From assembly GCF_000011325.1 (NCBI RefSeq), contig NC_003450.3, positions 3,240,001 to 3,272,000 on the forward strand: a stretch of 32,000 nt of DNA. Direction: 5' to 3'. The notes beneath the pieces are model-generated. The model was not told the origin of the DNA. It ran no database searches and saw only the letters and a program-made list of their open reading frames with translations. This DNA comes from Corynebacterium glutamicum ATCC 13032. Its GTDB lineage: Bacteria > Actinomycetota > Actinomycetes > Mycobacteriales > Mycobacteriaceae. Of the stretch, positions 188 to 31,283 are shown one piece after another. A program made the translations under genes and the position numbers. Numbering within the stretch: position 1 is the first letter of the stretch; every line of letters begins with the position of its first letter.

Positions 188-213
188 GGCAATGTTTCAC
201 GTGAAACATTGCC
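188..213. repeat. core palindrome copy 1 (26 bp perfect: GGCAATGTTTCAC|GTGAAACATTGCC)
   Basis: Perfect inverted repeat read directly. It lies 12 nt after the trpA stop, between convergent trpA and the PTS EIIC gene. Confidence 0.95.
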
Positions 214-229
214 CTAAAGTACAGATGTA

Positions 230-285
230 CAAAGAAGCCGCCTCCTAGCTCTCGGGCTGGGAGGCGGCTTCTTTGTTTGCGGTTT
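230..285 (+). terminator. intrinsic terminator hairpin
   Basis: 16-bp perfect stem CAAAGAAGCCGCCTCC (230-245) / GGAGGCGGCTTCTTTG (260-275) with a 14-nt loop, followed by TTTGCGGTTT. It sits between convergent trpA (+) and EIIC (-). Confidence 0.75.
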
Positions 286-310
286 AGGAAATCTCAGGGT
301 TTTGGAGATC

Positions 311-1852
311 TTAGCTTCGAGCCGGTGGGGTAGGAGCGCCCGCCGGAGGAGCAATCTTAGGGTAGGTCCGAGCCCCAGCCGTTGGAGTGGCATCAGCTTC
401 CGCCTTCTCCACGCGCTCACGGTTGGGAGCTGGATCCCAGTGCCCATTCACGACGCGCTTCTGGAAGACCATCGCGCCACCCAGAAGAACCGCTGCGATG
501 ATGAGCAACAAGATGAGCCCGCCAGCACCTTCCACCTTGGCTGCAGAACCAACAACGATTCCGAACCAACCAAAGTCCGCATCACCGAAAGTGGTGTTCT
601 CTGACCCGAAGGAACCAAGCACACCAAGCAGGAAAGCAGGGAGGAAGGTAATCAGAAGACCGTTGGCAAAGGCGCCAAATACTGCTCCTCGACGACCACC
701 CGTGGCATTACCGTAAACGCCCGCCGCGCCACCAGTGAAGAAGTGGGGGACCAAACCAGGCAGAATCAACGCGACACCAAAAGCTGGGTTCAGCCACGAT
801 GCAAGAACAGTCAGGCCAACCAAGCCACCGACGAAGGAAGACAAGAAACCAATGAGAACGGCGTTCTGCGCGTAGGGGAACACGATCGGTGCATCCAATG
901 CGGGGATAGCTCCGGGAACAACCTTCGCAGCAATACCTTGGAATGCGGGGACCAGTTCACCAAGAATGGTGCGGACACCAAAGAGAATCACGGCAACTGC
1001 AACGCCGAACTGCAGACCTTGAGTGAAGGACTGCATGATGTAGTTGCCTACGTTGGTGGCGCCATTGGGGAATGCAGTGAAGGCTTCTTCTTCTCCTGCG
1101 CGCACCAGGAACAAAATAGCCAAAATGATGTACATGATCGCCATGGACAGAGCTGTAGAAACCATGGAGTCGCGGAGGAAGCGCAAGCCTTCCGGAACCT
1201 TCATATCCTCAGTGGAAGGGCTGGCCTTCTTGCCCTTGCCACCGACCAGTCGGCCGACTGCACCGGCAGCTACATAACCTGCGGTGCCGAAGTGTCCAAT
1301 GGCAATGGAATCATCGCCAGTGATTCGGCGAGTCCACGGATGCGCGAACGCAGGCAACGACACCATGAGAATACCGAGCAAGAGAGCACCCACACCCACC
1401 ACAATCCACGCATCAAATCCGGCGGTGGCCAAGATGATGGTGAGCATGGTGGACATGAACAGCACGTGGTGTCCGGTGAGGAAGACATAACGCAGGTTGG
1501 TGAAACGAGCCAACACCAAAGAGATGGCGAAGCCCAGAATCATCAGCCACGCCACCTGCGCGCCGTATTCAGCCTGTGCGATTCCGGCGATGGCTTCATT
1601 CGTTGGGACAACACCACGCATGCCTGTGGCACCCATGATCATCGCACCCAGTGGCTCCAGGGAGGCAGTGACCAACGTGGCACCCGCACCAATGAGCAAA
1701 AAGCCCAACGTTGCTTTGATTGCTCCACCGATAACCTGACCGACGGAACGCCCCATGGCACCCAATCCCACGGCGGTGATGATACCGATGAGGAAAGCCG
1801 GAACCGCAAGGATTTCATTAACGAGGAAAAGAGGAATGGTTAACCAGTCCAT
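311..1852 (-). CDS. PTS ascorbate-family (SgaT/UlaA-like) EIIC permease
   Basis: 513 aa polytopic membrane protein, MDWLTIPLFLVNEILAVPAFLIGIITAVGL..., with glycine-rich helices typical of SgaT/UlaA EIIC. AAGGAC SD-like sequence before the ATG at 1852. It lies 24 nt downstream of the EIIAB gene in the same operon. It has a Pro/Ala-rich C-terminal tail of about 50 aa. I recall the C. glutamicum locus name rmpC but did not verify it. Confidence 0.9.
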   Translation of the reverse strand: MDWLTIPLFLVNEILAVPAFLIGIITAVGLGAMGRSVGQVIGGAIKATLGFLLIGAGATLVTASLEPLGAMIMGATGMRGVVPTNEAIAGIAQAEYGAQVAWLMILGFAISLVLARFTNLRYVFLTGHHVLFMSTMLTIILATAGFDAWIVVGVGALLLGILMVSLPAFAHPWTRRITGDDSIAIGHFGTAGYVAAGAVGRLVGGKGKKASPSTEDMKVPEGLRFLRDSMVSTALSMAIMYIILAILFLVRAGEEEAFTAFPNGATNVGNYIMQSFTQGLQFGVAVAVILFGVRTILGELVPAFQGIAAKVVPGAIPALDAPIVFPYAQNAVLIGFLSSFVGGLVGLTVLASWLNPAFGVALILPGLVPHFFTGGAAGVYGNATGGRRGAVFGAFANGLLITFLPAFLLGVLGSFGSENTTFGDADFGWFGIVVGSAAKVEGAGGLILLLIIAAVLLGGAMVFQKRVVNGHWDPAPNRERVEKAEADATPTAGARTYPKIAPPAGAPTPPARS

Positions 1853-1876
1853 AATATTTTCGTCCTTTTAAAGTAG

Positions 1877-2689
1877 TTAGATGTCGTAGCGTTCACGAAG
1901 CGCAGCATCGATTTCATCGGTGCTCGTGAAGTCATTGATCACGTGAACCGGGATTCCAACATCACCCAACGTGCGGGCGATTTCACCAGAGGTCATGATG
2001 AGATCAGCTTCCTTGGCTTTGCCCTTGGCGGAGATAGTGTCGGTTGCCTCCACCGTCATGTATGGACCCCAACCCCAGGTGTCGAAAACTTGCTCAAGGG
2101 TGTTTTTGAGGAAGAGGGAGGTACCCAAGCCGTTGCCACAGACGGTGAGGATCTTGTCGTGGGTTTTGGATTGGACTGAGGCTGCAGGAGCGTCAGTGGG
2201 TGTTACAGCAGGAGCCACAGCAGGAGCCTTCTGCTTCGCCGGCGCTGCTGCCTTCTCTAAGATTGCTTGGATCTCCTCGGGACTTTGTGCCTCGTCGAGA
2301 TCCTTTCGGTATTTTCCTAAAGCTTTAGCCAATGCCGCCATCGCTTGGGTATGTGCGGTGGCATCTTTGGCAGCGAGAGCAACGATGAGATTGACGGGAT
2401 CATTCTTACTGTGACCGAAGGAAACAGGGGAGGCCAGGCGCACCCACGACATAGCGGTCTCGCGGACTGCTCTGCTGGGGCGGGCGTGCGCGAAAGCGAA
2501 ACCTGGAGCGACCACAATGTAGGGGCCTTTTTCTTCCACGCTGGCGATCATGGCATCGGTGTAGGCGGAATCAATGCTGTTTGTCTTTTCTAGGAGTACA
2601 CCTGCGGCGCGGATGCCTTCACGCCAATCGGTGACCGTGCGGTCGAGTTCTATGCGTTCTGCCTTTAGCAGATCTTTGAGTACAAACAT
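1877..2689 (-). CDS. PTS EIIA(mannitol/fructose type)-EIIB fusion protein
   Basis: 270 aa. The N-terminal EIIA_2 domain has the active-site region GFAFAHARP. An Ala/Pro-rich linker (AAAPAKQKAPAVAPAVTPTDAPAA) follows. The C-terminal EIIB has KILTVCGNGLGTSLFLK with a phospho-Cys motif. Confidence 0.9.
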   Translation of the reverse strand: MFVLKDLLKAERIELDRTVTDWREGIRAAGVLLEKTNSIDSAYTDAMIASVEEKGPYIVVAPGFAFAHARPSRAVRETAMSWVRLASPVSFGHSKNDPVNLIVALAAKDATAHTQAMAALAKALGKYRKDLDEAQSPEEIQAILEKAAAPAKQKAPAVAPAVTPTDAPAASVQSKTHDKILTVCGNGLGTSLFLKNTLEQVFDTWGWGPYMTVEATDTISAKGKAKEADLIMTSGEIARTLGDVGIPVHVINDFTSTDEIDAALRERYDI

Positions 2690-2797
2690 AAGTAGATGTT
2701 AATTCACTGCATGTTGATTCGGATAGGGTCAAACATAAAGCCACACTTGCTAGATCTCCGTACGCCCCACGAAGACACCTCGAAGTTCCCACGCGAA

Positions 2798-2815
2798 ATG
2801 TTTCACGTGAAACAT
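2798..2815. repeat. core palindrome copy 2 (bare 18-bp core ATGTTTCACGTGAAACAT)
   Basis: Perfect 18-bp palindrome whose flanks are not complementary. It lies in the divergent promoter region, 30 nt before the ABC ATPase ATG (2846) and 108 nt before the EIIAB start (2689). Confidence 0.95.
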
Positions 2816-2845
2816 CTGCTGATTTTTGTCTCCAAGTGGAGTTGA

Positions 2846-3763
2846 ATGAGAGTTATGAACACTCCGGCAGTTCAGGTTCAAAATCTAAGTTTGAGTTTTG
2901 GGTCGTTCACAGCTGTCAACGGCCTCAGCCTCACGGTGGAGCAGGGGAGCATTCACGGCTTCCTCGGCCCCAACGGTGCAGGAAAGTCAACAACCATCAG
3001 GGCACTCATTGGAGTGCTAAAACCCCAAACAGGTTCAGTCGCTATTCTCGGCCAAGATCCTGTTGCTCACCCCGATGTCCTTCGAAGAGTTGGCTACGTT
3101 CCAGGAGATGCCACACTGTGGGACAACCTCACTGGGGCGGAAGTTTTCAGGGCGCTCGAATCACTCCGCAAGACTCCATCCAACCGAGCTCTAGAAAACG
3201 AGCTCATTGACGCCTTCCAATTGGATCCCTCGAAGAAGATCCGCGAATACTCGACAGGTAACAGAAGGAAAGTCAGTCTCATCGCGGCGCTCAGTCATGA
3301 GCCCGAGCTCCTCATCGTTGACGAGCCCACCGCAGGCTTGGATCCCATCATGGAGCAAGTCTTTGTCACCTATGTCCGCAAGGCACGAACCAACGGCGCG
3401 TCCGTGTTACTCAGCAGCCACATTCTCAGTGAGGTGGAGCAGCTGTGTGATTACGTCACGGTCCTTAAAGAGGGGCGAGCAGTTGCATCTAATGAGGTGA
3501 GCTATCTGAGGAAGATCTCCGCTCACCGCATTACTGCCACGATTCCGGCGGTACCTCAACACCTTGCTGGCAGGGGAGAAGTGGATTTCGATGCTGGCCA
3601 TCTCAGCATCACCTGCGATGCCTCCGAGGTTCCCGATATTTTGCGCATCATCATCGACGCTGGCGGCCAGGACATCATCAGCACCGCGGCGTCGCTGGAG
3701 GAGATCTTCTTGCGTCACTATGGAGAAACCGTGAGTGGTTCAGAAAGCAAGGCATCACAATGA
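2846..3763 (+). CDS. ABC transporter ATP-binding protein
   Basis: Walker A GPNGAGKST, signature-like YSTGNRRKV and Walker B LLIVDEPTAGLD. GGAG at 2838-2841. An alternative ATG lies at 2855. The stop overlaps the permease start (ATGA at 3760-3763). Confidence 0.9.
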   Translation: MRVMNTPAVQVQNLSLSFGSFTAVNGLSLTVEQGSIHGFLGPNGAGKSTTIRALIGVLKPQTGSVAILGQDPVAHPDVLRRVGYVPGDATLWDNLTGAEVFRALESLRKTPSNRALENELIDAFQLDPSKKIREYSTGNRRKVSLIAALSHEPELLIVDEPTAGLDPIMEQVFVTYVRKARTNGASVLLSSHILSEVEQLCDYVTVLKEGRAVASNEVSYLRKISAHRITATIPAVPQHLAGRGEVDFDAGHLSITCDASEVPDILRIIIDAGGQDIISTAASLEEIFLRHYGETVSGSESKASQ

Positions 3764-5346
3764 TCCGTCTTAATCTACGTCTTCGTCGGATGCTCATTCT
3801 GTGGTGGCTGCTTGGCATCTGGGTATTTCTCATCATCACCCCGCCGTCATATGTTGCCACCTATCCGGACCTTGCGAGCCGTGGGCCGGTTGTCTCAAGT
3901 GTGCAAAATAATGTGGGCACTCAAGCAATGTATGGCTATCTTCCATCGCCTGGCACCATTGGGCAATTAACCGCCTGGGAAACTGGAGCATGGTTATGCG
4001 TGTTGTCGTCGGTGATGATGGTTTTGCTGTTTAGCTCGCTTCATCGCAAACCTGAAAGCTCGGGTCTCGTCGAGTATGTGTATGCCGCGGGGCGCAGCGG
4101 TTCTTCCCGTTTCGGCGCGGCGATCGCCACAGGCACGATTGTGTCTGTCCTCAACGGTGCGGTGTGCGCCTTCATCCTGCTCGCTTTTCGATATCTAAGC
4201 ATTGATGAAATCACGGTCGCTGGCAGCATAGCGTTCGGCGTAACCATCACTCTCACCATGCTCGCCACCATGGCCATCACGAGCATTCTGCAGAGCTTGT
4301 GGGGGAGGGGAACCAACTTCAACCGCCTTGGCCTCCTCAGCGTGGGTGCCGCATTTTTGATCAGAATGTTCGCTGACACATCGTCGTCAAGCTGGGCAAC
4401 TCACCTCAACTGGGTGTCACCGCAGGGCTGGCGCACAGTGATCGCACCCTTCACGGAAGACAGTTGGCTGAAGGCTTTGGTCTTGGCCATCGTGTGCGCG
4501 GCGCTCATCGGCGTTGCATTTACCCTCGATTCCCGGCGCCCCTTCGATGAAAGCCTGCTTCACCTTCGAGGTTCGAAGCGCTACCGCGAGCGAAAAATCC
4601 GAAGCCTGTACAGCCTGAACATGGTGCTTCACAGAGGAAATCTGATCACTTGGTCGATCGTCATCGGCTTGGTTCTGCTGATTTTCCTTCCCCTCATCGA
4701 CTCACTCCTGCCGTCGCTGCAAGGCGATGCCGCGACGATGCAAGCCGTCGAAGCCTTCTTGCCAGCGGGCGAATTGCAGATCACCTTCATCGTCTACGTC
4801 TTCCAAATCGCGTCTATTCTGCTCAGCATCGCAGTGGTCTTGCCCGTCATCGGGTTCATCGGCCAAGAGCGCGAAGGCCTCATCGACGCGGTCCGCAGCA
4901 CGGGCGTGCGCCGCTGGTCGCCCCTATGGGGCTGCGTTCAAGCATGCTTATCGACGCTAACCTCCTGCACCATTTTCGCCATTCTATGTGCTCTCCTGGG
5001 TTTGTATCTCCAACCGTCAACAGTGGAAGACGGGACCTCCCTCATGGTGCTTTCCGGCCTCTCAATTGCCGTCCATGCACTGTTCTTCCTAGGAATCGCA
5101 ATCGCAGTAGCGGGACTTGCACCGCGCGTCATCCACCTTGCCTGGCTCCCCATTATTGCGGCGTCGGTAGTGACTCTCCTCGGCCCATTGTTCTCACTCA
5201 CCGAGCAGCAAATGGAATTCTCGCCACTGACACATTCATGGGCAAACTCCGATGAAGCAGTGTGGCCGTTGCTCACATTCGCGATTATTGGTGTCGCCCT
5301 TGGGGGAGTAGGCCTACTTGGGGCGCAGCGAAGGAACCTACTTTAG
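3760..5346 (+). CDS. ABC-2-type transporter permease (multi-pass membrane protein)
   Basis: 528 aa with many hydrophobic helices. It is translationally coupled to the ATPase through the ATGA overlap. Confidence 0.8.
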   Translation: MIRLNLRLRRMLILWWLLGIWVFLIITPPSYVATYPDLASRGPVVSSVQNNVGTQAMYGYLPSPGTIGQLTAWETGAWLCVLSSVMMVLLFSSLHRKPESSGLVEYVYAAGRSGSSRFGAAIATGTIVSVLNGAVCAFILLAFRYLSIDEITVAGSIAFGVTITLTMLATMAITSILQSLWGRGTNFNRLGLLSVGAAFLIRMFADTSSSSWATHLNWVSPQGWRTVIAPFTEDSWLKALVLAIVCAALIGVAFTLDSRRPFDESLLHLRGSKRYRERKIRSLYSLNMVLHRGNLITWSIVIGLVLLIFLPLIDSLLPSLQGDAATMQAVEAFLPAGELQITFIVYVFQIASILLSIAVVLPVIGFIGQEREGLIDAVRSTGVRRWSPLWGCVQACLSTLTSCTIFAILCALLGLYLQPSTVEDGTSLMVLSGLSIAVHALFFLGIAIAVAGLAPRVIHLAWLPIIAASVVTLLGPLFSLTEQQMEFSPLTHSWANSDEAVWPLLTFAIIGVALGGVGLLGAQRRNLL

Positions 5347-5386
5347 CAACTGGCTAAATAAGATTCTCTGGACGATACTAGGCATT

Positions 5387-5770
5387 ATGACTCAACCAGC
5401 CCCCATGTGTAGCCGCCGCATGTTTCTTCTTGGAACAGCAACAACCTTCGCAGGTGCTTTTCTTGCAGCCTGTGGTACTGAACCAGATCAGGAGGTAGCG
5501 GCTACTGAAGTCCCCGTCGGAAGCTCTGTCATCTTGGGTTCCGTAATCATTGCGCAGCCAACCGAAGGCAACTTCGTGGCTTACTCTTCTGCATGCCCAC
5601 ACCAGGGATCACGCATCACCAAGGTAGAGGGAGACACTGTTATTTGCACGAACCATAAGTCAGTCTTCAACATTTCCGATGGTTCAGTTGTGTCCGGCCC
5701 AGCCCAGAACGGACTCACCAGCGCCAATCTCAAGCAGGACGGCGACACTCTGAGCGCGTCCGTGCAGTAG
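5387..5770 (+). CDS. Rieske [2Fe-2S] domain lipoprotein with twin-arginine signal
   Basis: Start moved to the ATG at 5387 (MTQPAPMCSRRMFLLGTATTFAGAFLAACGTE). It has the Tat motif SRRMFLLG, the lipobox LAAC, and Rieske ligands CPHQG ... CTNH. It lies 40 nt after the permease stop. Confidence 0.8.
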   Translation: MTQPAPMCSRRMFLLGTATTFAGAFLAACGTEPDQEVAATEVPVGSSVILGSVIIAQPTEGNFVAYSSACPHQGSRITKVEGDTVICTNHKSVFNISDGSVVSGPAQNGLTSANLKQDGDTLSASVQ

Positions 5771-5781
5771 AAAAACAGACA

Positions 5782-5819
5782 AAAAATGGCGATGTTTCAC
5801 GTGAAACATCGCCATTTTT
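5782..5819. repeat. core palindrome copy 3 (38 bp perfect: AAAAATGGCGATGTTTCAC|GTGAAACATCGCCATTTTT)
   Basis: Perfect 19+19 bp palindrome with A5/T5 ends. It fills almost the whole 49-nt gap between the convergent Rieske stop (5770) and OYE stop (5820). Its shape fits a bidirectional terminator. Confidence 0.95.
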
Positions 5820-6932
5820 CTACCACGCACCTCGCACATAGGACGGTGGGTAGGGGATCTCATCGCGAGTTTTCCCCAGTTCATGCGCAGCAAATAGTGG
5901 CCAGGAAGGGTAGCGGAGGGCAGCTCGACCCAGCGAAATAATGTCCGCATCTCCACGATCAAGATGCCCCTGCGCCTGACCCACATGAGTAATTAATCCA
6001 ACCGCGGAGGTAGGGATACCCACCTCTTGCTTCACACGACGAGCAAATTTCACTTGATAGCTCGGCTCCACAGGGATTGTCGCGGGTACTGCACCTCCGG
6101 TGGAAATATCGACTGCATCCACACCCAGCTTTTTCAGATCTGACACAAGCGAGACGGTTTGATCGTCATCCCACGAAGGTTCATCATCAATCCAGTCCGT
6201 GGCAGAGATCCGGGCAATCAGTGGCATCGAGCCCGGAATCACTGCACGGATCGCCTGGGCTACTTCCCTAAATAGTCGTGTGCGATTCTCAAACGAACCT
6301 CCATAAATATCAGTACGTTTATTTGCGACGGGAGTGAGGAACTGATGCAACAGGTAACCGTGGGCACCATGGACCTCCACAGCATCAAACCCTGCACGCA
6401 CCGCGCGCTCTGCAGCAGCAGCGAAATCCTGAATAACCTTTTCAATACCTTCGCGGGTCAATTCGGTCGGATCTGCAAGCCCCGGCTGAGCGACAGCACT
6501 AGGCCCAAAGGTTTCCCATCCACCCTCGTCAACTGATTGAGTACCAGTAGGGAAGTTAGGAAGGGCCGGATATGTGCTCGCTTTGCGGCCTGCATGGTTA
6601 AGTTGCACACCGATCAGTCCACCTTGAGCGTGGACAAAATTTGTAATTCTCTCCCATGCCTCAACTTGGGCCTCATTCCATAGGCCAGTGCAACGCGATG
6701 AGATTCTTCCCTCTGGACTAATGCCGGTGGATTCCGCGATGAGGAGTCCGAAGCCGCCAACAGCTCGGGCTCCGTAATGCACGAGGTGCCAATCAAGTGG
6801 AACCCCATCGAGGTTATTGGCTTGGTACTGGCACATGGGCGCGAGCCACATCCTATTGGGAATTTCTAATCCACGGATTGCAATGGGAGTAAGGAGGGAA
6901 GTCATGGTGTCGAGAATAGTCCAAAAATCCAC
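5820..6932 (-). CDS. NADH:flavin oxidoreductase, Old Yellow Enzyme family
   Basis: 370 aa. Motifs PNRMWLAPMCQY and HGAHGYLLHQFLTPVANKRTDIYGGSFENRTRL are typical of OYE/NamA. GTG start at 6932 is preceded by AAGGA. An alternative ATG lies at 6905. Confidence 0.9.
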   Translation of the reverse strand: MDFWTILDTMTSLLTPIAIRGLEIPNRMWLAPMCQYQANNLDGVPLDWHLVHYGARAVGGFGLLIAESTGISPEGRISSRCTGLWNEAQVEAWERITNFVHAQGGLIGVQLNHAGRKASTYPALPNFPTGTQSVDEGGWETFGPSAVAQPGLADPTELTREGIEKVIQDFAAAAERAVRAGFDAVEVHGAHGYLLHQFLTPVANKRTDIYGGSFENRTRLFREVAQAIRAVIPGSMPLIARISATDWIDDEPSWDDDQTVSLVSDLKKLGVDAVDISTGGAVPATIPVEPSYQVKFARRVKQEVGIPTSAVGLITHVGQAQGHLDRGDADIISLGRAALRYPSWPLFAAHELGKTRDEIPYPPSYVRGAW

Positions 6933-7234
6933 AATCCTTGCGCTGATTCAACCACGCAGGAAGTCAATTGATTAACGACACAGTGACGAAACTAAATAGA
7001 GCGATAAAATTAATGGGTTAATCCCACTATTTCATTTCAAGTAACTTGATTCACCGAGCATCAGGGAAACCAATATTGGGTTCACCTAAAACTGCTGGTC
7101 ATTTCCATCGCCCATGCCCCCACGCGATGTCTTCTCACAGTACCACCCACAAGCCACAAGGAGGGTATGGAGGTGGGCGTCTAAAGCCAAATTTTTCCCG
7201 GTGTTTGAGGCGATTGCACCGTACACTAATGTGC

Positions 7235-8209
7235 ATGCTTGAACGCCTCAAACGCCTAGATCCGCTCATTGTCCTCATTGTGCTGGCTGTCATTGTGGCG
7301 ATCATCATTCCAGTTCGCGGGGTTGCTGCGGATTGGTTTGATGTCGCCGTCAAGATTGCCATTGCGCTGCTGTTTTTTCTTTATGGTGCCCGCCTATCCA
7401 CCCAAGAGGCGCTGAATGGTCTGAAGCACTGGAGGCTTCACCTGACTATTTTGGCGATCACTTTCGGAATATTCCCACTTATCGGCATTGGGCTCGAGCC
7501 GATGACTGCATTTGTGTCGGAAGATATTTATCGGGGAATTTTGTTCCTCACGCTCGTTCCGTCCACCGTGCAGTCATCGGTGGCGTTTACCTCGATCGCT
7601 AAAGGCAACGTAGCTGGTGCGATTGTGTCGGCATCGCTCTCCAACCTTGCGGGTGTTTTCCTCACTCCGCTGCTGGTCATGCTCATCATGTCTGCGGGCG
7701 GGGGAGTTCACGTGGATTCCCAGGTCTTCCTCGACATTGCGATTCAGCTTCTGCTGCCGTTCATCCTCGGCCAGGTATGTAGGCGTTGGGTGAAGAATTT
7801 TGCGGCCAACAAAGCAACAAAAATCGTGGACCGCGGCTCGATCGCGATGGTCGTGTACTCCGCGTTTTCTGCCGGCATGGTGGCTGGCATTTGGTCCACT
7901 GTGAGCGTTCTAGAGATTATCTACCTCATTGTTTTCGCTATTCTGCTGGTGATGGCCATGCTGTGGTTCACGCTGTTCATGGCTACACGCCTTGGATTTA
8001 ACCGGGCAGATTCCATCGCTATTCAGTTCTGCGGAACCAAGAAATCCCTGGCCACAGGCCTCCCAATGGCGGCAGTCATCTTCGGTGGCGCCAATATCGG
8101 CCTGCTCATCTTGCCGTTGATGATCTTCCACCAAGTCCAGCTGATGATTTGTGCATGGCTTGCAGCTCGTTATGGTCGTGATGCGCAGGAACAGAAAGCC
8201 AACGCCTAA
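7235..8209 (+). CDS. bile acid:Na+ symporter (BASS/SBF-like) family transporter
   Basis: The track ORF starts at 7046, but its first 60 aa or so are basic and non-membrane. The hydrophobic body starts at MLERLKRLDPLIVLIVLAVIV (ATG 7235, or 7229). It has about 10 TM helices and a YfeH-like pattern. Confidence 0.75.
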   Translation: MLERLKRLDPLIVLIVLAVIVAIIIPVRGVAADWFDVAVKIAIALLFFLYGARLSTQEALNGLKHWRLHLTILAITFGIFPLIGIGLEPMTAFVSEDIYRGILFLTLVPSTVQSSVAFTSIAKGNVAGAIVSASLSNLAGVFLTPLLVMLIMSAGGGVHVDSQVFLDIAIQLLLPFILGQVCRRWVKNFAANKATKIVDRGSIAMVVYSAFSAGMVAGIWSTVSVLEIIYLIVFAILLVMAMLWFTLFMATRLGFNRADSIAIQFCGTKKSLATGLPMAAVIFGGANIGLLILPLMIFHQVQLMICAWLAARYGRDAQEQKANA

Positions 8210-8248
8210 AAGTCCTCAGTAGCTAGCCAAGCTGGTCAAGCAATGAAA

Positions 8249-8276
8249 GTGGTCACCTTCCGGGGGCCACTTTTTT
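8249..8276 (+). terminator. intrinsic terminator
   Basis: Stem GTGGTCACC / GGGGGCCAC (one wobble, one mismatch), loop TTCC, then TTTTTT (8271-8276). It lies 40 nt after the transporter stop. Confidence 0.7.
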
Positions 8277-8323
8277 GCATTCTAGGCAGTTCGGGCCGGT
8301 GTGAATAAAACACCTTCCCCAAA

Positions 8324-8339
8324 TAGACAGCATGGTCTA
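8324..8339. promoter_or_regulatory. perfect TAGAC-N6-GTCTA inverted repeat (McbR-type operator consensus)
   Basis: TAGACagcatgGTCTA was read directly. It overlaps a candidate -10 hexamer TAGATT (8338-8343), 54 nt upstream of the ATG at 8393. The consensus is assigned from memory of the C. glutamicum McbR motif. Confidence 0.5.
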
Positions 8340-8392
8340 GATTAGCTTGAAACGAAAGCGTACATTCGCAGCAACTAACGGAAAGCACACTC

Positions 8393-9169
8393 ATGACTCA
8401 CACTCTGCAGGCAACTAATCCCCTTGATCAAACCGCTTGGCACGCTTGGCATTTCTCCCGAAACAAAGAGGCCATCAGCCGCACCGGCGCCACCAGCCTG
8501 AGTGCCACAGAGTGGATTAGCGCCACCACACTCAAGGACGCGCACACTTTTCCTTCACTTCCCGGGCGATGGTATAAACGAGGCGGCGGGGTAGTGGGAG
8601 CACATTTACCACCAGCTTTCGCAACAACTGGAACGGTGCAACTGCGCCCCGGTGAGCTCTTGATAGCGGAAGATTTCACCCTCACCGTCATTGAACGGCT
8701 TGGACAGTTTGCACTTCAGGTTTTTGATGCACGCAATCCGAAGCGTTTTGAATTCCACTCCATCGCAGCTTTCCCACCGTCCGAGGAATGGCGGATTGAG
8801 GCTCGCTTCTTCCCGGAACCTGACACTGTTAACACCGCTGCAGCTGATGGAGTTATCGTTGCCACGCCTACTGCGGGTTGGGTGCACTTTTTGAAGGGCC
8901 GTCTGGATTACCGTCTTCGTGTAACCGTTCAGAAAAATAATCTACGGGCACTATTTAGCGACAATTCCTCGACGTTGGGCGTTTATCAGCATCGTTTTGT
9001 CGACATCCCACGCCCTGATGCCGAGGGAAACACCATCATTGATTTCAACCGCGCTTATCTTCCCCCAAAGGCATTGAACCGAAAGTTCCTGTGCCCATCG
9101 CCCAGCCTGAACAACCACCTCAATCTCACCGTGGAGGCAGGGGAGAAGTGGGTGGTTGCTGGAGGATAA
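8393..9169 (+). CDS. conserved hypothetical protein, DUF1684-like
   Basis: 258 aa soluble protein with GGAAAG SD 8 nt upstream. The family call comes from memory of the locus and of actinobacterial DUF1684 proteins, and is not verified. Confidence 0.6.
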   Translation: MTHTLQATNPLDQTAWHAWHFSRNKEAISRTGATSLSATEWISATTLKDAHTFPSLPGRWYKRGGGVVGAHLPPAFATTGTVQLRPGELLIAEDFTLTVIERLGQFALQVFDARNPKRFEFHSIAAFPPSEEWRIEARFFPEPDTVNTAAADGVIVATPTAGWVHFLKGRLDYRLRVTVQKNNLRALFSDNSSTLGVYQHRFVDIPRPDAEGNTIIDFNRAYLPPKALNRKFLCPSPSLNNHLNLTVEAGEKWVVAGG

Positions 9170-9184
9170 TACTTGCTAACCGTC

Positions 9185-9523
9185 CTAAACGGGCAAGTCA
9201 GCTGCGTTGCGCTCTTCCACTTCCGCTCGCATGACAGAAGTCAGCAGTCCCGGAAAACGCGCTTCCATATCTTCGCTGCGCAGCGCACTTAGAATGGCAG
9301 TTCCTTCATAGCGCTGAGTAATCAGACCCGCCTCACGGAGTACGCGGAAGTGGTGCGTTGAGGTGGATTTAGATACTGGAAGCTCGAAGGCAACACATGC
9401 CTGATCATTATGTCCGCACGACAGCTGCGACAGGATTTGTCGCCTAATAGGATCCGACAGCGCAAACATGATGGCATTTAAATTCATCTCGGCCAAAGAT
9501 GGATGTTCCAATTTGCGGGCCAT
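9185..9523 (-). CDS. cyeR: ArsR-family redox-responsive transcriptional regulator
   Basis: Start moved to ATG 9523 (MARKLEHPS...), which is preceded by GGAGGG. It has an ArsR-type winged HTH (FALSDPIRRQILSQL ... SKSTSTHHFRVLREAGLI) and Cys residues in SCGHNDQAC. It is divergent from an OYE gene, as in the described CyeR-cye1 pair. Confidence 0.8.
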   Translation of the reverse strand: MARKLEHPSLAEMNLNAIMFALSDPIRRQILSQLSCGHNDQACVAFELPVSKSTSTHHFRVLREAGLITQRYEGTAILSALRSEDMEARFPGLLTSVMRAEVEERNAADLPV

Positions 9524-9562
9524 GACACCCTCCAAATGATCTCGTAAAACAGTATTGAATTT

Positions 9563-9584
9563 AGGTACGACTCTAATCGTACCT
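9563..9584. promoter_or_regulatory. inverted repeat AGGTACGA-N6-TCGTACCT, candidate CyeR operator
   Basis: Perfect 8-bp arms in the cyeR/cye1 divergent region. A second weaker copy, GTACGAtcaaacTCGTTG, lies at 9606-9623. Confidence 0.55.
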
Positions 9585-9651
9585 TGCCCTCAAGCCAAGC
9601 TAGTTGTACGATCAAACTCGTTGTATGGCAAACGTCGTACTAGTCGATCGA

Positions 9652-10746
9652 ATGGAGCCTTTGGTGTCCAAGCTGTTTACCCCAATTCAAATCCGCGACA
9701 TCACCATCCCCAACCGCGTGTGGATGTCACCGATGTGCACCTACTCTGCAGCCACCGGTTCAGGTCTTCCCACCGATTTTCACCAGGCTCATTACGCAGC
9801 TCGCGCAGCAGGTGGTGTCGGATTAGTCATGGTTGAAGCAACTGGAGTGAACCCCGTAGCTCCCATCTCCCCAGTCGACCTTGGACTTTGGAGCCATGAC
9901 CAAATTGAACCATTCTCCCGAGTGACAGCAGCTATTCGCGCCGGTGGGGCAGTACCGGCCGTTCAATTAGCCCATGCTGGCCGCAAGGCATCCACCGATG
10001 CTCCGTGGAATGGTGGCGGATATGTTGGACCAGAAACCAATGGATGGGAGACTGTCGGCCCCAGCCCTCTGGCATTCCCAGGTTTGCCTGCTCCGCGCGA
10101 GCTGACGGTTTCAGAAATCCAAGAGGTTGTGCAGCAGTTCGCTGGCGCCGCCGTTCGTGCCGATCAGGCTGGTTTTGATGTCGTGGAAATTCACGCAGCA
10201 CACGGCTACCTTTTGCATAACTTCCTTTCTCCGATCTCCAACAAGCGCACCGATTCATACGGCGGATCTTTAGAAAACCGCGCTCGCATCGTGCTCGAAG
10301 TCATTGATGCAATCCGCGCAGTGTGGCCAGAGGAAAAGCCTGTATTCATGCGCATTTCCACCACCGACTGGGTGGAGGAAAACCCACAGGATGATCGCGA
10401 GTCCTGGACGCTGAGCCAAAGCAGGCAGCTGGCTTTGTGGGCATCCGAGCACGGAGTTGATTTGATCGATGCCTCTTCTGGTGGCCTCGACATCGTCCCC
10501 ATTCCGCATGACCGCGATTACCAAACCGCGAAGGCCGCAGATCTTCACGCAAGTACCGGAGTGACAGTCGCTGCTGTGGGGCGCATTGATGACGCCCAAA
10601 CTGCGCACAATTTGGTTGATTCTGGCGATGTCAATGCAGTTTTCCTCGGCCGTCCACTGCTCAAGGATCCTTCCTGGGCAAACCAAGCAGCCCTCGCACT
10701 AGGTGCGGAACCCAGGTATGTTCACCAATACGACTACGTACTTTAA
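9652..10746 (+). CDS. cye1: NADH:flavin oxidoreductase, Old Yellow Enzyme family
   Basis: Paralog of the 5820-6932 gene, with HAAHGYLLHNFLSPISNKRTDSYGGSLENRARI. The start is ambiguous: TTG 9604 (track), ATG 9625 or ATG 9652. I prefer 9652 (MEPLVSKLFTPIQIRD) because it aligns with the paralog N terminus and leaves the second operator-like repeat outside the CDS. Confidence 0.85.
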   Translation: MEPLVSKLFTPIQIRDITIPNRVWMSPMCTYSAATGSGLPTDFHQAHYAARAAGGVGLVMVEATGVNPVAPISPVDLGLWSHDQIEPFSRVTAAIRAGGAVPAVQLAHAGRKASTDAPWNGGGYVGPETNGWETVGPSPLAFPGLPAPRELTVSEIQEVVQQFAGAAVRADQAGFDVVEIHAAHGYLLHNFLSPISNKRTDSYGGSLENRARIVLEVIDAIRAVWPEEKPVFMRISTTDWVEENPQDDRESWTLSQSRQLALWASEHGVDLIDASSGGLDIVPIPHDRDYQTAKAADLHASTGVTVAAVGRIDDAQTAHNLVDSGDVNAVFLGRPLLKDPSWANQAALALGAEPRYVHQYDYVL

Positions 10747-10758
10747 AGGAGAGTTGAC

Positions 10759-11409
10759 ATGAAGGTTTTCATCATCGGCGCTGCGGGTGGCATCGGCAAT
10801 CGACTTTCCAGCCTGCTTCACGCCAGGGGAGATGCAGTTAGCGGCATGCACCGCAATCTTGAGCAGGCCTCAAAAATCACAGACACTGGGGCAACTGCCG
10901 TACTCGGGGATCTCATCCACAACAGCACGGAGGAGCTTGCGGAGCTTTTCCGCGGTCACGATGCCATCGTATTTTCTGCAGGCGCCCACGGAACAGGGCA
11001 AGAAAATACCACGCTTATCGACGGCGCCGGCCTCCGTAAAGCCGCCGACGCTGCCAGCGCGGCCAACGTTTCACGCTTCATCTTGGTCTCTGCGTTTCCG
11101 GAATCCTCCCGCGGGGAGAACACCACCGAGAACTTTGAGCACTATATGAAGGTGAAGAAGTCCGCCGATGTCTACCTCAGTCACACTGACCTAGACTGGG
11201 TTATTGTCCGACCAGGCGTGCTTCAAGATGAGGCAGGGGATGGTTTAGTCACTGCTGGCTTAGCGATTAATTACGGCAATGTTGCTCGCGATAATGTCGC
11301 AGCGTTCATTGATGAAGCTCTGCATCAACCGCAGTTGTCAAAGATCATTGTTGAACTCACCGACGGTTCAACTCCGGTGGCGGAAGCCGTAGAACGCCTC
11401 ATCAAGTAA
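10759..11409 (+). CDS. NAD(P)-binding atypical SDR (NmrA/YwnB-like) protein
   Basis: 216 aa with the Rossmann motif MKVFIIGAAGGIGNRL. AAAGGAG SD. It lies 12 nt after the cye1 stop, consistent with an operon. Confidence 0.85.
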   Translation: MKVFIIGAAGGIGNRLSSLLHARGDAVSGMHRNLEQASKITDTGATAVLGDLIHNSTEELAELFRGHDAIVFSAGAHGTGQENTTLIDGAGLRKAADAASAANVSRFILVSAFPESSRGENTTENFEHYMKVKKSADVYLSHTDLDWVIVRPGVLQDEAGDGLVTAGLAINYGNVARDNVAAFIDEALHQPQLSKIIVELTDGSTPVAEAVERLIK

Positions 11410-11415
11410 AGACGA

Positions 11416-11455
11416 AAAGAGGGAGAATGTTTCACGTGAAACATTCTCCCTCTTT
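11416..11455. repeat. core palindrome copy 4 (40 bp perfect: AAAGAGGGAGAATGTTTCAC|GTGAAACATTCTCCCTCTTT)
   Basis: Perfect 20+20 bp palindrome. It lies 6 nt after the + strand stop (11409) and 8 nt after the - strand stop (11464) of convergent genes. Confidence 0.95.
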
Positions 11456-11463
11456 AGCTACTT

Positions 11464-11619
11464 CTAGGAAGAGAGTGAAGAAGTGTAGTGCTGTGACTCG
11501 ACTGCTTCAGGTCGCGCCCATCCCTGGAAGTGCTGGAACTGCTCTTGGATCTGAGCGCCCCACTGTGCTGGCTTGAAGTTCTGTGCGATGTCGGTGAAGT
11601 GCTGGATCTGATCAAACAT
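11464..11619 (-). CDS. small Gln/Phe-rich protein, paralog A (51 aa)
   Basis: My own translation: MFDQIQHFTDIAQNFKPAQWGAQIQEQFQHFQGWARPEAVESQHYTSSLSS*. AAGGAAATCACT precedes the ATG. It is below the track length cut-off. The track ORF 11454-11684 is a different frame. Confidence 0.7.
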   Translation of the reverse strand: MFDQIQHFTDIAQNFKPAQWGAQIQEQFQHFQGWARPEAVESQHYTSSLSS

Positions 11620-11701
11620 AGTGATTTCCTTTGCTGAGGTTGAATGAGTTCGGGGAGTAAAAACAGCTGCGCTGCGATTCTCAAGGGGAGCAGGGCTCCT
11701 C

Positions 11702-11729
11702 GGTCAATGTTTCACGTGAAACATTGACC
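11702..11729. repeat. core palindrome copy 5 (28 bp perfect: GGTCAATGTTTCAC|GTGAAACATTGACC)
   Basis: Read directly. It lies 11 nt after the stop of small-protein paralog B. Confidence 0.95.
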
Positions 11730-11740
11730 TTAAAGAGCGA

Positions 11741-11899
11741 CTAGGAGCTGAGGGAGAAAGTGCTCTTGGCTGGCTCTACAGTTTCGGTGTTAAACCAATT
11801 CTGGAAGTGCTGCTGGAACTGCTCCTGAATCTGGACACCCCACTGTGCGCCCTGGAAGTTCTGTGCAATGTCGGTGAACTGCTGGAACTGATCAAACAT
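11741..11899 (-). CDS. small Gln/Phe-rich protein, paralog B (52 aa)
   Basis: MFDQFQQFTDIAQNFQGAQWGVQIQEQFQQHFQNWFNTETVEPAKSTFSLSS*. This is the internal ATG of track ORF 11741-11935, preceded by AAGGAGATCACT. Confidence 0.75.
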   Translation of the reverse strand: MFDQFQQFTDIAQNFQGAQWGVQIQEQFQQHFQNWFNTETVEPAKSTFSLSS

Positions 11900-12094
11900 A
11901 GTGATCTCCTTAAAGTGATTGTTGTAAAGAAGCAAGAACGTCTGTTGTAAAAGGTTTAAAAAAGCTTAAGGTATCGCTAGACTTGCCACGATGAGGCTTT
12001 ACCTCCAACCGCAGCCCTCCCAGAACATCGGTTACCGATGGCGTCTCTCTGGCAGCTGAGTTGGCAGCAAAGCTAATCATTCCGGATCGCATTG

Positions 12095-12120
12095 GGGGAT
12101 GTTTCACTTGAAGCGTCCCC
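12095..12120. repeat. core palindrome copy 6, degenerate (GGGGATGTTTCAC|TTGAAGCGTCCCC)
   Basis: The left arm is intact. The right arm differs from the expected GTGAAACATCCCC at 3 positions. It lies 10 nt after the stop of paralog C. Confidence 0.8.
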
Positions 12121-12130
12121 TCATGTGTTC

Positions 12131-12301
12131 TTAGGAAGAGAGGGAAGAGGTACGCTCCGGCAGGGGAGCAGCCTCAGGGCGAACCCACTGCTGAATCTGC
12201 TGAGGGAAGTGCTGCTGGAACTGCTCCTGAATTTGAGCGCCCCACTGTGCAGGCTGGAAGTTTTGTGCAATGTCGGTGAAGTGCTGAATCTGATCGAACA
12301 T
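12131..12301 (-). CDS. small Gln/Phe-rich protein, paralog C (56 aa)
   Basis: My own translation: MFDQIQHFTDIAQNFQPAQWGAQIQEQFQQHFPQQIQQWVRPEAAPLPERTSSLSS*. AAAAGGAGTTCAAC precedes the ATG. The track ORF 12121-12510 is another frame. Confidence 0.7.
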   Translation of the reverse strand: MFDQIQHFTDIAQNFQPAQWGAQIQEQFQQHFPQQIQQWVRPEAAPLPERTSSLSS

Positions 12302-12332
12302 GTTGAACTCCTTTTAAGTGGTTGAGTGAGAT

Positions 12333-12413
12333 TTAGGAAGAAAGAACGACTGCAGAGAAGATGTCGGAAACGCTTCCCAGGACAGTGTTGAAGATGTTGA
12401 CGATGTATCCCAT
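12333..12413 (-). CDS. candidate 26-aa hydrophobic small ORF
   Basis: ATG at 12413 to TAA at 12333-12335: MGYIVNIFNTVLGSVSDIFSAVVLSS*. Codons are mostly C-ending preferred codons (ATC GTC AAC TTC CTG TCC GAC). It ends 31 nt upstream of paralog C and shares the ...LSS-stop ending. The SD is weak (GAAAG). Confidence 0.3.
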   Translation of the reverse strand: MGYIVNIFNTVLGSVSDIFSAVVLSS

Positions 12414-12728
12414 GAAAAGAACTCACTTTCTCGTGTACTTGCAAGGTGTGCCAGCGACGGTGTGTTCCGTTGCTGTGACTTGAAGTTAACACCGAAAAAA
12501 TTTTTCCCACAAACAGCGGTCAGACCAATTTTCAACTCCGTGACCTGCACAAATGCAAAAATACTGAAGTTTATGGGAATTCCCCCATCATCATGATCTA
12601 GCTGCGGAAATGGCATATCATCATGGCTAACCAACAAAGGTCATCTCAACCGGCTTAAGAAAATTCTGCCAGCTTTCTGCTGATTGAATCGTGCCAGCTC
12701 AGGGCATATCTCACCTAAAGTAAACACC

Positions 12729-13484: not shown

Positions 13485-13560
13485 ATGAATTGATTATTTT
13501 AGGCTCCCAGGGATTAAGTCTAGGGTGGAATGCAGAAATATTTCCTACGGAAGGTCCGTT

Positions 13561-13743
13561 ATGACGCCTGCAGGTCCAGCACAATTACTCATTGTTGCTC
13601 TTGTAGTAATTGTCCTCTTTGGTTCCAATAAGTTGCCTGATGTTGCTCGGTCCGTTGGCCGTTCGATGCGCATTTTCAAATCTGAGATCAAAGAGATGAA
13701 CAAGGATCAGATCGAAAGCTCCGATCAGACCTTGAAGAACTAA
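13561..13743 (+). CDS. tatE: TatA/E-family twin-arginine translocase subunit
   Basis: Start moved to ATG 13561, preceded by [52 protein letters not shown] shows the TatA signature (TM helix, FG hinge, amphipathic helix). I recall this second copy being named tatE. Confidence 0.85.
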
Positions 13744-13757
13744 GGTTCCTCGCATCT

Positions 13758-13806
13758 AAAAACCGCCTGCCTTCTCTGTTTAGAGAAGGCAGGCGGTTTT
13801 TGTTTT
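13758..13806. terminator. bidirectional intrinsic terminator
   Basis: AAAAA, then a 15-bp perfect stem CCGCCTGCCTTCTCT (13763-13777) / AGAGAAGGCAGGCGG (13782-13796) with loop GTTT, then TTTTTGTTTT. It lies between convergent tatE and the POT transporter. Confidence 0.9.
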
Positions 13807-13821
13807 GAGGCTTTGTGAGGC

Positions 13822-15475: not shown

Positions 15476-15495
15476 AATGTTTCACGTGAAACATT
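15476..15495. repeat. core palindrome copy 7 (bare 20-bp core AATGTTTCACGTGAAACATT)
   Basis: Read directly, with no complementary flanks. It lies 127 nt upstream of the POT transporter start and 246 nt downstream of the TetR stop. Confidence 0.95.
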
Positions 15496-16406: not shown

Positions 16407-16442
16407 AGAATGCCAATGTTTCACGTGAAACATTGGCATTCT
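16407..16442. repeat. core palindrome copy 8 (36 bp perfect: AGAATGCCAATGTTTCAC|GTGAAACATTGGCATTCT)
   Basis: Read directly. It lies 26 nt after the dioxygenase stop (16469) and about 108 nt upstream of the TetR start. Confidence 0.95.
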
Positions 16443-16468
16443 GGAGGGTTGCGTCGAAAAGCGAAATC

Positions 16469-26270: not shown

Positions 26271-26287
26271 AACCTTACTGCTTATCT

Positions 26288-31097: not shown

Positions 31098-31109
31098 TTA
31101 TGGATAGGT

Positions 31110-31144
31110 AAACGCTCTACACGGTTTAAGTGTGGAGCGTTTTT
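31110..31144 (+). terminator. intrinsic terminator of phoC
   Basis: Stem AAACGCTCTACAC / GTGTGGAGCGTTT (one G-U wobble), loop GGTTTAA, T-run to 31144. It starts 13 nt after the stop. Confidence 0.8.
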
Positions 31145-31166
31145 CAATGTTTCACGTGAAACATTG
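31145..31166. repeat. core palindrome copy 9 (22 bp: CAATGTTTCAC|GTGAAACATTG)
   Basis: Read directly. It directly abuts the T-run of the phoC terminator. Confidence 0.95.
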
Positions 31167-31249
31167 CAACAAAAATGGCGCTTTTCGACGCCCCCGCCGC
31201 CTCTTCACCGCTGTTAAGTGGCGGGCATTATGGTTGTCGGGGCGAGATG

Positions 31250-31283
31250 AACCCTCAATGTTTCACGTGAAACATTGAGGGTT
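31250..31283. repeat. core palindrome copy 10 (34 bp perfect: AACCCTCAATGTTTCAC|GTGAAACATTGAGGGTT)
   Basis: Read directly. It lies 83 nt after copy 9 and is followed by TT. Confidence 0.95.

Follow-up and report, generated by a model that had tools for sequence, protein, structure and literature searches.

Repeated palindromes of an origin-proximal region of Corynebacterium glutamicum are parS sites, most of them at the tips of terminator-like hairpins

The palindrome repeated across the 32,000-nt window analysed here (BX927147.1 positions 3,213,308-3,245,307 of the 3,282,708-bp chromosome of Corynebacterium glutamicum ATCC 13032) has as its core the canonical chromosomal parS, which is bound by ParB/Spo0J. 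The sites very probably consist of two layers, an invariant core that is the ParB site and variable flanks that form terminators or 3'-end hairpins with parS at their tip. The parS cluster, the main feature of the window, is a textbook element that is already known, and the less familiar point that remains, which is of modest importance, is that most copies form the tip of a terminator-like hairpin that follows a gene. For annotation, the window can be labelled as the centromere region of C. glutamicum close to the origin.

The motif ATGTTTCACGTGAAACAT has nine exact matches in the window and a tenth copy with three mismatches (Table 1), in agreement with the counts and positions of the preliminary description, and it lies far above chance, as none of 100 dinucleotide-preserving shuffles of the window contains a match. 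The inner 16-mer TGTTTCACGTGAAACA (nine exact copies, and one with three mismatches) is the parS consensus used across the ParB literature and matches the 16-bp palindrome TGTTNCACGTGAAACA, while the map position of the window agrees with the origin-proximal clustering of parS. The motif, for which no assigned function had been recognised at the outset, thus has one, and the earlier suggestion of a site for an unknown dimeric protein was right in kind but not in calling the protein unknown, which is ParB according to ChIP-seq at these sites. An unknown regulator binding CACGTG is ruled out by the same published ParB binding. At gathering thresholds no Rfam family matched the window, and the motif is thus absent from the curated RNA families. 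The core is identical in every exact copy because ParB recognition constrains it, and for that reason its fixed sequence needs no explanation in terms of a terminator. In this known layer, a ParB dimer recognises TGTTTCACGTGAAACA in duplex DNA, closes into a CTP-dependent clamp, slides outward and builds the partition complex, which is segregated by ParA and also loads SMC.

The ten parS of the chromosome occupy a 35-kb cluster that lies 73 kb away from oriC; parS1 is within trpCF, parS2 to parS10 are intergenic, and no exact parS occurs anywhere else in the genome (Böhm et al. 2020, Nat Commun 11:1485). The nine exact copies in the window are parS2 to parS10 of these ten mapped sites, while parS1, with an extension of just 4 bp, lies inside trpCF at window coordinate -2471, 2.5 kb upstream of the window, so that the cluster spans 33.7 kb when it is counted. 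ParB-mCherry ChIP-seq was enriched at all ten parS, bare copies included, in three propagation zones (Böhm et al. 2020), which are reproduced by the spacing of the sites (parS1-4, parS5-8 and parS9-10, with 4, 4 and 2 sites, respectively). Removal of all ten parS gave 29% DNA-free mini-cells, and deletion of parS or parB abolished the SMC enrichment at the cluster, while a strain retaining only parS1 resembled the wild type in growth, division and ParB localisation, one site thus being sufficient (Böhm et al. 2020). Elsewhere in the genome, degenerate sites with at least three mismatches do not recruit ParB (Böhm et al. 2020). The copy with three mismatches in the window is a dead extra site and is absent from the published ten. 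The palindromic flanks are not mentioned in the main text of that paper, in which the words palindrome, terminator, stem-loop and inverted repeat do not occur.

Table 1. Sites carrying the repeated core, the remaining hairpins and the grt genes, in window coordinates
Feature	Position	Start of ATGTTTCACGTGAAACAT copy	dG (kcal/mol)	Description
parS2	188..213	192		26-bp perfect palindrome, 16-mer 193-208; begins 12 nt past trpA stop (173-175)
parS3	2798..2815	2798		Bare 18-bp site in divergent promoter region, between PTS EIIA/B gene (minus strand, start 2689) and ABC ATPase gene (plus strand, start 2846)
parS4	5782..5819	5792	-23.3	38-bp palindrome, A5-GGCG-core-CGCC-T5; fills gap between convergent Rieske gene (stop 5770) and OYE gene (stop 5820)
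parS5	11416..11455	11427	-27.8	40-bp palindrome between convergent NmrA-like gene (stop 11409) and grtC (stop 11464)
grtC	11464-11619			Minus strand; tandem paralogue, glutamine-rich toxin
parS6	11702..11729	11707		28-bp palindrome, 11 nt 3' of grtB stop; in tandemly duplicated gene + hairpin unit
grtB	11741-11899			Minus strand; tandem paralogue, glutamine-rich toxin
Decayed parS	12095..12120	12099		ATGTTTCACTTGAAGCGT, three mismatches; GGGG/CCCC outer stem intact; 10 nt 3' of grtA stop
grtA	12131-12301			Minus strand; tandem paralogue, glutamine-rich toxin
parS-free hairpin	13758-13801			A5-20 bp-T5, between convergent genes
parS7	15476..15495	15477		Nearly bare 20-bp site 5' of PTR2-type transporter gene (minus strand)
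parS8	16407..16442	16416	-23.3	36-bp palindrome, 26 nt 3' of dioxygenase stop (16469, minus strand)
phoC terminator	about 31111-31144			Canonical, stem + T-tract
parS9	31145..31166	31147		22-bp palindrome immediately after canonical phoC terminator
parS10	31250..31283	31258		34-bp palindrome, then TTTT; about 100 nt 5' of next plus-strand gene

All ten copies are intergenic when judged against the called genes, and the exact ones are perfect palindromes of 18-40 bp, while the decayed copy pairs in its outer stem alone. Nine of the ten perfect hairpins in the window whose stem reaches 9 bp or more are parS sites. Seven copies lie near stops, starting 6-47 nt past a stop codon or ending 0-26 nt before a minus-strand stop. 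These features were reproduced much as first described, while the CAATG...CATTG extension, which had been called usual, is present in five to six of the ten copies and not in the remainder.

The flanks are read here as lying outside the ParB site and as forming terminator or 3'-end hairpins carrying parS at their tip, which, judged from their sequence and position, would end or stabilise transcripts. A parS directly behind a gene would be transcribed, and its bare RNA hairpin would be weak and AU-rich (about -5 kcal/mol); a GC-rich base, to which A and T tracts are often added, would lengthen this hairpin to reach -15 to -28 kcal/mol, and the extended palindromes would then act as terminators or as hairpins at the 3' end, in many cases on both strands. 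Six extended copies (parS2, parS4, parS5, parS6, the decayed copy and parS8) form stable GC-containing stem-loops 0-26 nt from a stop, with dG values of -15 to -28 kcal/mol, and are kept in the minimum-energy folds of the 3' UTRs, while the bare copies parS3 and parS7 form no such stem-loop after a stop. Among the terminator-like matches at positions 1-17000, parS hairpins take ranks 1-3. A T-tract is clear at parS4, parS5 (on the minus strand and partly on the plus strand) and parS10, three or four extended copies having one altogether, and a U-tract is absent at parS2, parS6 and parS8. The ability of hairpins without a U-tract to terminate transcription in actinobacteria is disputed. The parS4 palindrome, framed by its A and T tracts, looks like a bidirectional terminator. 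The only parS-free long hairpin in the window (13758-13801) is built like the extended parS palindromes and likewise evolves by compensatory change. The terminator reading of the preliminary description is supported for the flanks as a separate second layer, by their covariation, their 3' position and their likeness to the parS-free hairpin, and is not required for the core.

The self-complementarity of the changing flanks, also noted at the outset, was borne out across species. Orthologous loci were reached from homologues of three proteins (PhoC, the DUF1684 protein and the small Grt protein) and then by looking up exact proteins, while a genome-collection scan with the 216-aa NmrA-like protein returned no Corynebacterium locus, the best match being from Streptomyces (65% identity). 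In the pool of 27 sites from four species, 81.3% of the flank cells are paired vs 67.3% in shuffles, and the covariation score is 0.349 vs 0.127 in shuffles, neither value being reached by any of 500 shuffles; slid controls score 0.10-0.18. At the trpA site, the core is kept in orthologues from three other species and the flanks differ yet remain complementary (GGCAA, GCCAA, TAGGGGCAA or AAAACCGGCAA). At the Rieske/OYE site, GGCG/CGCC is replaced by the compensatory GGTG/CACC in C. suranareeae, while parS5, the grtC site, shows three double, compensatory pair changes against the same species. This covariation is proposed to result from selection for pairing. The stems are nearly all Watson-Crick, with very few G-U pairs, which suits a bidirectional function and also fits a homogenisation of the palindrome at the DNA level.

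The length of the extension follows the context of the site, the long extensions belonging to sites directly 3' of stops. Sites forming the first hairpin after a stop (n=21) extend past the 16-mer by a median of 10 bp, compared with 2 bp for the group made up of promoter and coding sites together with those that follow another terminator (n=14; Mann-Whitney p = 7e-5, and 0.006 once orthologous sites are collapsed). At the parS7 position the extension is short in five species (2, 5, 2, 1 and 2 bp), while the parS3 position carries an 8-bp extension in C. suranareeae and no parS in C. crudilactis. Two extended sites, parS10 (9 bp) and one site of C. suranareeae (8 bp), have no annotated stop directly before them. 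In all, about two thirds of the clade's parS form the tip of a co-varying hairpin located 3' of a gene, while in a broad metagenomic sample about 8% of the sites have an extension of 5 bp or more.

The sites might be parS only, with the palindromy of their flanks a mutational by-product without transcript-level function. Under this explanation, the 16-18 bp palindrome seeds single-strand hairpins at replication, and template switching copies one arm to the other; the conversion of quasi-palindromes by template switching is a well-established type of mutation. The almost purely Watson-Crick stems are what such a process would leave, and extended palindromes also occur at low frequency around parS in unrelated metagenomic contigs (11 of 139 sites are extended by at least 5 bp, vs 0.5 expected). 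Extended copies are found moreover where a terminator is unneeded, at parS10 and at trpA, where, as at phoC, a canonical terminator already adjoins the palindrome as first described, so that a terminator role for the 26-bp trpA hairpin seems superfluous. Against this explanation stand the dependence of extension on context, with PTR2, coding and behind-terminator sites short and 3'-of-gene sites long, the GC-rich stem base and frequent A/T-tract frame, which recur in the perfectly paired parS-free terminator, and the outer stem retained by the decayed grtA hairpin despite its imperfect core palindrome, and it is considered unlikely. Far less probable is that the extended palindrome aids ParB or SMC loading at the DNA level through, for example, the extrusion of a cruciform or a larger protein footprint. 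The positions at ±9 are A/T in 26 of the 27 sites of the clade vs 55-60% of the broad metagenomic sample, and those at ±10 show a purine/pyrimidine bias, which suggests that the sequence contacted or preferred by ParB is a little longer than 16 bp. However, the bare copies are ChIP-positive, extensions of 0 to 15 bp occur, their sequences being unrelated, and a cruciform would be expected to destroy the duplex site that ParB binds. The extension is not needed by ParB, because parS1, a coding site with a 4-bp extension, supports growth, division and ParB localisation on its own much as in the wild type.

The copy number of parS varies between species and strains, and this variation, together with a 111-bp segment with one parS that is present in C. 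glutamicum and absent from a related strain, and a 2.6-kb segment bounded by two copies, could point to a miniature mobile palindromic element (REP- or MITE-like) inserting into hairpin tips, as proposed in the preliminary description. However, core-masked all-against-all BLAST of ±250 nt found similarity among the three tandem grt units only, and the one parS-less orthologous site that was examined has divergent sequence in which the outer stem is not kept, so that neither a flank or terminal sequence shared beyond the grt units nor a clean empty site was found. The junctions of the 111-bp segment are parS-to-parS, the related strain having a single site with the parS9 flank on its left and the parS10 flank on its right, which fits recombination between copies, and exact sites are confined to one origin-proximal cluster, unlike those of a dispersing element. 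Such an element would be expected to combine sequence shared past the core, target-site duplications and dispersal through the genome, a combination that the sites do not show; a mobile element is extremely improbable and the proposal was abandoned. Copy number was changed by tandem duplication of the grt gene and hairpin units, and probably also by recombination between neighbouring parS copies.

The duplication of the grt unit carried the parS hairpin along with each gene. At grtA the parS core is lost in both C. glutamicum and C. suranareeae, with a common central G-to-T change, while the outer stem is kept over 4 bp in the former and measures 12 bp in the latter; the stem is therefore maintained without ParB binding. 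In another C. glutamicum strain, parS6 has a point mutation (CATGTG) and decayed flanks. The plus-strand-only G-U pairing of the decayed core was considered as evidence of a plus-strand RNA function and rejected, since three substitutions in two species are not statistically meaningful. The 3' UTRs of the grt genes consist largely of parS hairpins.

It may tentatively be proposed, as a possibility more doubtful than the two-layer composition of the sites, that in a clade comprising C. glutamicum, C. suranareeae, C. crudilactis, C. deserti and C. callunae the centromere sites have systematically merged with transcript-end hairpins, so that one palindrome would load ParB when read as DNA and form the tip of a terminator or 3'-stabilising hairpin in RNA. 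No prior report of parS inside terminators or extended palindromes, or of such dual use, was found in the searchable literature. If the proposal is true, the merger could shield ParB loading sites from read-through transcription, and in grtABC the parS hairpin could supply a shared 3'-UTR structure for the antisense RNA AsgR and RNase III. The sites would be an example of a palindromic protein-binding site sharing its sequence with a terminator, and terminators are suggested to be cost-free places for new parS copies to settle. There is also a warning in this arrangement, as deletion or mutation of parS, as in the published parS-null strains, may alter the 3' ends of neighbouring genes.

Compared with known systems, the nine exact cores of the window do not differ from parS2-10 of Böhm et al. 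(2020), the organism and coordinates being the same, while the published ten lack the decayed copy at 12099 and include parS1 outside the window. GrtABC-AsgR is a type I toxin-antitoxin-like system of C. glutamicum (Maeda, Tanaka and Inui 2018, Mol Microbiol 108:578), and the three small minus-strand genes beside 11427, 11707 and 12099 are the grt paralogues of this system, a neighbour of the motif and not its explanation. The 16-bp sequence of the core is the same as that of chromosomal parS of ParABS (B. subtilis-type consensus TGTTNCACGTGAAACA). Like bidirectional Rho-independent terminators such as the hairpin at 13758-13801, the parS palindromes directly follow stops, turn over by compensatory change, and have long perfect stems with a GC-rich base and, at 5782-5819 and 11416-11455, A/T-tract frames; unlike such terminators, several of them have no U-tract, and a fixed DNA site for protein binding takes the place of free sequence in their upper stem and loop.

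A search of the whole window with ATGTTTCACGTGAAACAT, allowing up to three mismatches, returns nine exact matches and a tenth with three mismatches, while none of 100 dinucleotide-preserving shuffles of the window contains a match. The nine exact copies and one decayed copy of the core claimed in the preliminary description are thus confirmed, and its palindrome coordinates are reproduced by measuring the perfect palindromic extension beyond the 18-mer. Of the ten perfect hairpins in the window whose stem reaches 9 bp or more, nine are palindrome sites.

Palindromes and neighbouring features in the window (positions are window coordinates; extension is the perfect palindromic extension beyond the 18-mer)
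Feature	Position	Strand	18-mer match at	Extension (bp)	Description
parS2	188-213		192	4	
PTS segment	214-2797				two PTS genes, 2.6 kb
parS3	2798-2815		2798	0	
parS4	5782-5819		5792	10	
NmrA-like gene	10759-11409				NAD(P)-binding, 216 aa, adjoins parS5
parS5	11416-11455		11427	11	
grtC, grtB, grtA	11464-12301	minus			tandem paralogous small genes, 51, 52 and 56 aa, starting MFDQIQHFTDIAQNF...
parS6	11702-11729		11707	5	
Decayed copy	12095-12120		12099	4	
Hairpin without parS	13758-13801				between convergent tatA-like and PTR2-type transporter genes; A5, 20-bp stem, 4-nt loop, T5
parS7	15476-15495		15477	1	
parS8	16407-16442		16416	9	
parS9	31145-31166		31147	2	
parS9-parS10 spacer	31167-31249				83 nt
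parS10	31250-31283		31258	8	

The inner dodecamer, used as a full-text literature query, leads to papers on ParB/parS, and TGTTTCACGTGAAACA is the canonical chromosomal parS (consensus TGTTNCACGTGAAACA). C. glutamicum has ten parS of identical sequence in a 35-kb cluster 73 kb from oriC, with parS1 within trpCF and parS2-10 intergenic; ParB ChIP-seq shows enrichment at all ten, in three zones (parS1-4, parS5-8 and parS9-10), while degenerate sites elsewhere in the genome with at least three mismatches do not recruit ParB (Böhm et al. 2020, PMC7083940). Removal of all ten parS results in 29% DNA-free mini-cells, SMC enrichment at the cluster is lost when parS or parB is deleted, and parS1 as the sole site suffices for wild-type-like behaviour (Böhm et al. 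2020, PMC7083940). Window position 1 corresponds to position 3,213,308 of BX927147.1, parS1 is located at window coordinate -2471 in the IGPS/PRAI gene, and the cluster spans 33.7 kb, its site spacing giving groups of four, four and two that agree with the three published zones. As position, spacing and the published set agree, the nine exact copies are parS2-10, while the copy at 12099 is a decayed site outside the published ten. The core is an already known element, characterised experimentally in C. glutamicum itself, and the earlier statement that it lacked an assigned function is wrong; the dimeric DNA- or RNA-binding protein proposed there was right in kind, given the ParB ChIP-seq at these sites, but is not an unknown one. 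An Rfam scan of the window gave no match, as expected for a DNA site.

The flanks, the sequences outside the core, had been described as differing between copies yet self-complementary, which is correct and is borne out by both orthologous sites and a pooled test. Loci syntenic with the window were compared from C. suranareeae (L023), C. crudilactis (L026 and L152), C. deserti (L028), C. callunae (L153), another strain of C. glutamicum (L025) and a related assembly (L154); at orthologous sites the core is kept and the flanks are changed in a compensatory manner. Behind trpA the flank reads GGCAA, GCCAA, TAGGGGCAA or AAAACCGGCAA, with the exact complement opposite in each; between the convergent Rieske and OYE genes it reads AAAAATGGCGA, AAAAATGGTGA, AGAAAAGGCAA or AAAATGGCAA, the last with one mismatch adjoining the core, and the C. 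callunae site has a 14-bp extension; behind grtC it is AAAGAGGGAGAA, GAAGGGGGAA or AAAAAGGGGAA. When 27 sites of 40 nt were aligned on the core, with 3' partners shuffled among sites as control, 81.3% of cells are paired (67.3% in shuffles), 77 cells are changed on both sides (32.7 expected), and the covariation score is 0.349 (0.127 in shuffles), neither the pairing nor the score being reached in any of 500 shuffles; sliding the partners by one to three columns gives scores of 0.10-0.18. The stems are nearly all Watson-Crick, with few G-U pairs.

The length of the extension depends on gene context. Beyond the 16-mer, the inner part of the core, it has a median of 10 bp where the site is the first hairpin after a stop codon (n=21) and 2 bp where it lies in a promoter, within a coding sequence or after a further terminator (n=14; Mann-Whitney p = 7e-5, or p = 0.006 with orthologous sites collapsed to one value), and the site upstream of the PTR2-type transporter gene is short in all five species (2, 5, 2, 1 and 2 bp). 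A simple terminator scan of positions 1-17000 ranks three parS palindromes highest (11416-11455, 5781-5820 and 12094-12121, in this order); extended copies form hairpins of -15 to -28 kcal/mol and bare ones of -5 to -8.5 kcal/mol, and the hairpins persist in minimum-energy folds of 3' UTRs. The sole long perfect hairpin without parS in the window has the same build as that at 5782-5819, its orthologues differ between species in a compensatory manner, and it is a textbook bidirectional terminator. Stems with so few G-U pairs fit a bidirectional function, and they also fit template switching at the DNA level, which makes palindrome arms alike and may contribute to flank pairing; the dependence of extension on gene context counts against a purely mutational origin. 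The terminator reading is weakened by the lack of a U-tract at several extended copies, by a canonical terminator already standing beside the palindrome at both trpA and phoC, and by parS10, which has no annotated stop codon directly before it. Two layers are proposed: the core is held by ParB constraint, and the flanks are probably held as transcript-end hairpins, often for both strands. The earlier terminator reading holds for the flanks only, with termination inferred from context, covariation and folding. What may be new, as a modest by-product, is that parS is associated with hairpins lying 3' of genes. The self-complementary flanks go unmentioned in the text of the ParB paper, which uses none of the terms palindrome, terminator, stem-loop or inverted repeat (Böhm et al. 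2020, PMC7083940).

The two layers are separable in both directions. ParB function is independent of the extension, as parS1, sufficient alone, has a palindromic extension of only 4 bp, and an outer stem is kept without ParB binding at the grtA hairpin, where the core is lost in both C. glutamicum and C. suranareeae and the outer stem measures 4 and 12 bp, respectively. As a central G-to-T change is common to both species, this loss probably predates their split. The small genes here encode GrtC, GrtB and GrtA, glutamine-rich toxins that belong to the toxin-antitoxin-like system GrtABC-AsgR, each gene being followed after 9-12 nt by a hairpin, gene and hairpin together forming the tandem unit. 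Each of the three 3' UTRs is essentially one parS or parS-derived hairpin, a common structure which might be a target of the antisense RNA AsgR and RNase III. In the decayed hairpin the arm substitutions pair as G-U only on the plus strand, antisense to grtA (dG -17.4 against -9.1 kcal/mol), and the C. suranareeae orthologue (L023 9830-9869) has the same pattern, which hints at a plus-strand RNA, possibly AsgR, though with three substitutions the pattern is not significant.

As for how copies multiplied or vanished, insertion of a miniature element into hairpin apices is not borne out, since no empty hairpin whose outer stems are intact turned up in the comparison, and at the one examined site where a related species lacks parS, C. 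crudilactis has divergent sequence in its place and nothing else. A mobile element finds no support: when the ±250 nt surrounding each of the ten sites are compared all against all by BLAST with the core masked, similarity is confined to the sites at 11427, 11707 and 12099, the tandem grt units, which number two in C. suranareeae and one in C. deserti. Downstream of phoC, two sites that lie 111 bp apart in C. glutamicum (31145-31283) correspond to a single parS in L154 (14420-14460; PhoC 89% identical); as the left flank of this parS is that of parS9 and its right flank that of parS10, a parS copy stands at either end of the 111-bp indel, consistent with recombination between the two copies. 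The PTS segment lies exactly between parS2 and parS3 and is missing in C. suranareeae (L023 18483-18553), where the equivalent sites are separated by 87 bp that contain an unrelated hairpin, and in C. deserti (L028 5400-5870); one breakpoint abuts the parS3 core edge. In C. glutamicum strain LOQV01 (L025 10177, window 11708), the parS behind grtB has its central CACGTG changed to CATGTG and its outer stem partly lost, which indicates that individual parS of the cluster are dispensable and variable between strains.

Several further features adjoin the sites. For the NmrA-like protein, a scan of species-representative genomes gave a best match in Streptomyces (65% identity) and no relative from Corynebacterium, and C. 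suranareeae, C. crudilactis and C. deserti lack the gene at their syntenic loci; the gene was probably acquired horizontally in recent times. The parS9-parS10 spacer, missing in L154, includes a hairpin rich in GC and, on the minus strand, a terminator-like site (31192-31177), the plus strand ending in the parS10 hairpin followed by TTTT; it could encode a small RNA. The metagenome contig k141_193 from ENA (L004 1-10068) is folded back about the 38-bp parS4 palindrome as a perfect inverted duplication of 5 kb, almost certainly an artefact to which the palindrome gave rise during assembly.

Among 139 parS sites on 120 contigs of a metagenomic sample (L030-L149), A occupies the base left of the 16-mer in 55% and T that on its right in 60%, with purine/pyrimidine favoured at the next position outward, which suggests that ParB sites are effectively 18-20 bp in many bacteria; this bias probably explains why the 18-mer, and not only the 16-mer, is invariant here. 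The palindrome extends by 5 bp or more at 11 sites (0.5 expected from shuffled partners) and by 8 bp or more at four (0.025 expected), the longest resembling A-tract/T-tract terminators. Location of parS inside longer palindromes is thus found at about 8% of metagenomic sites, against about two thirds in the C. glutamicum group.
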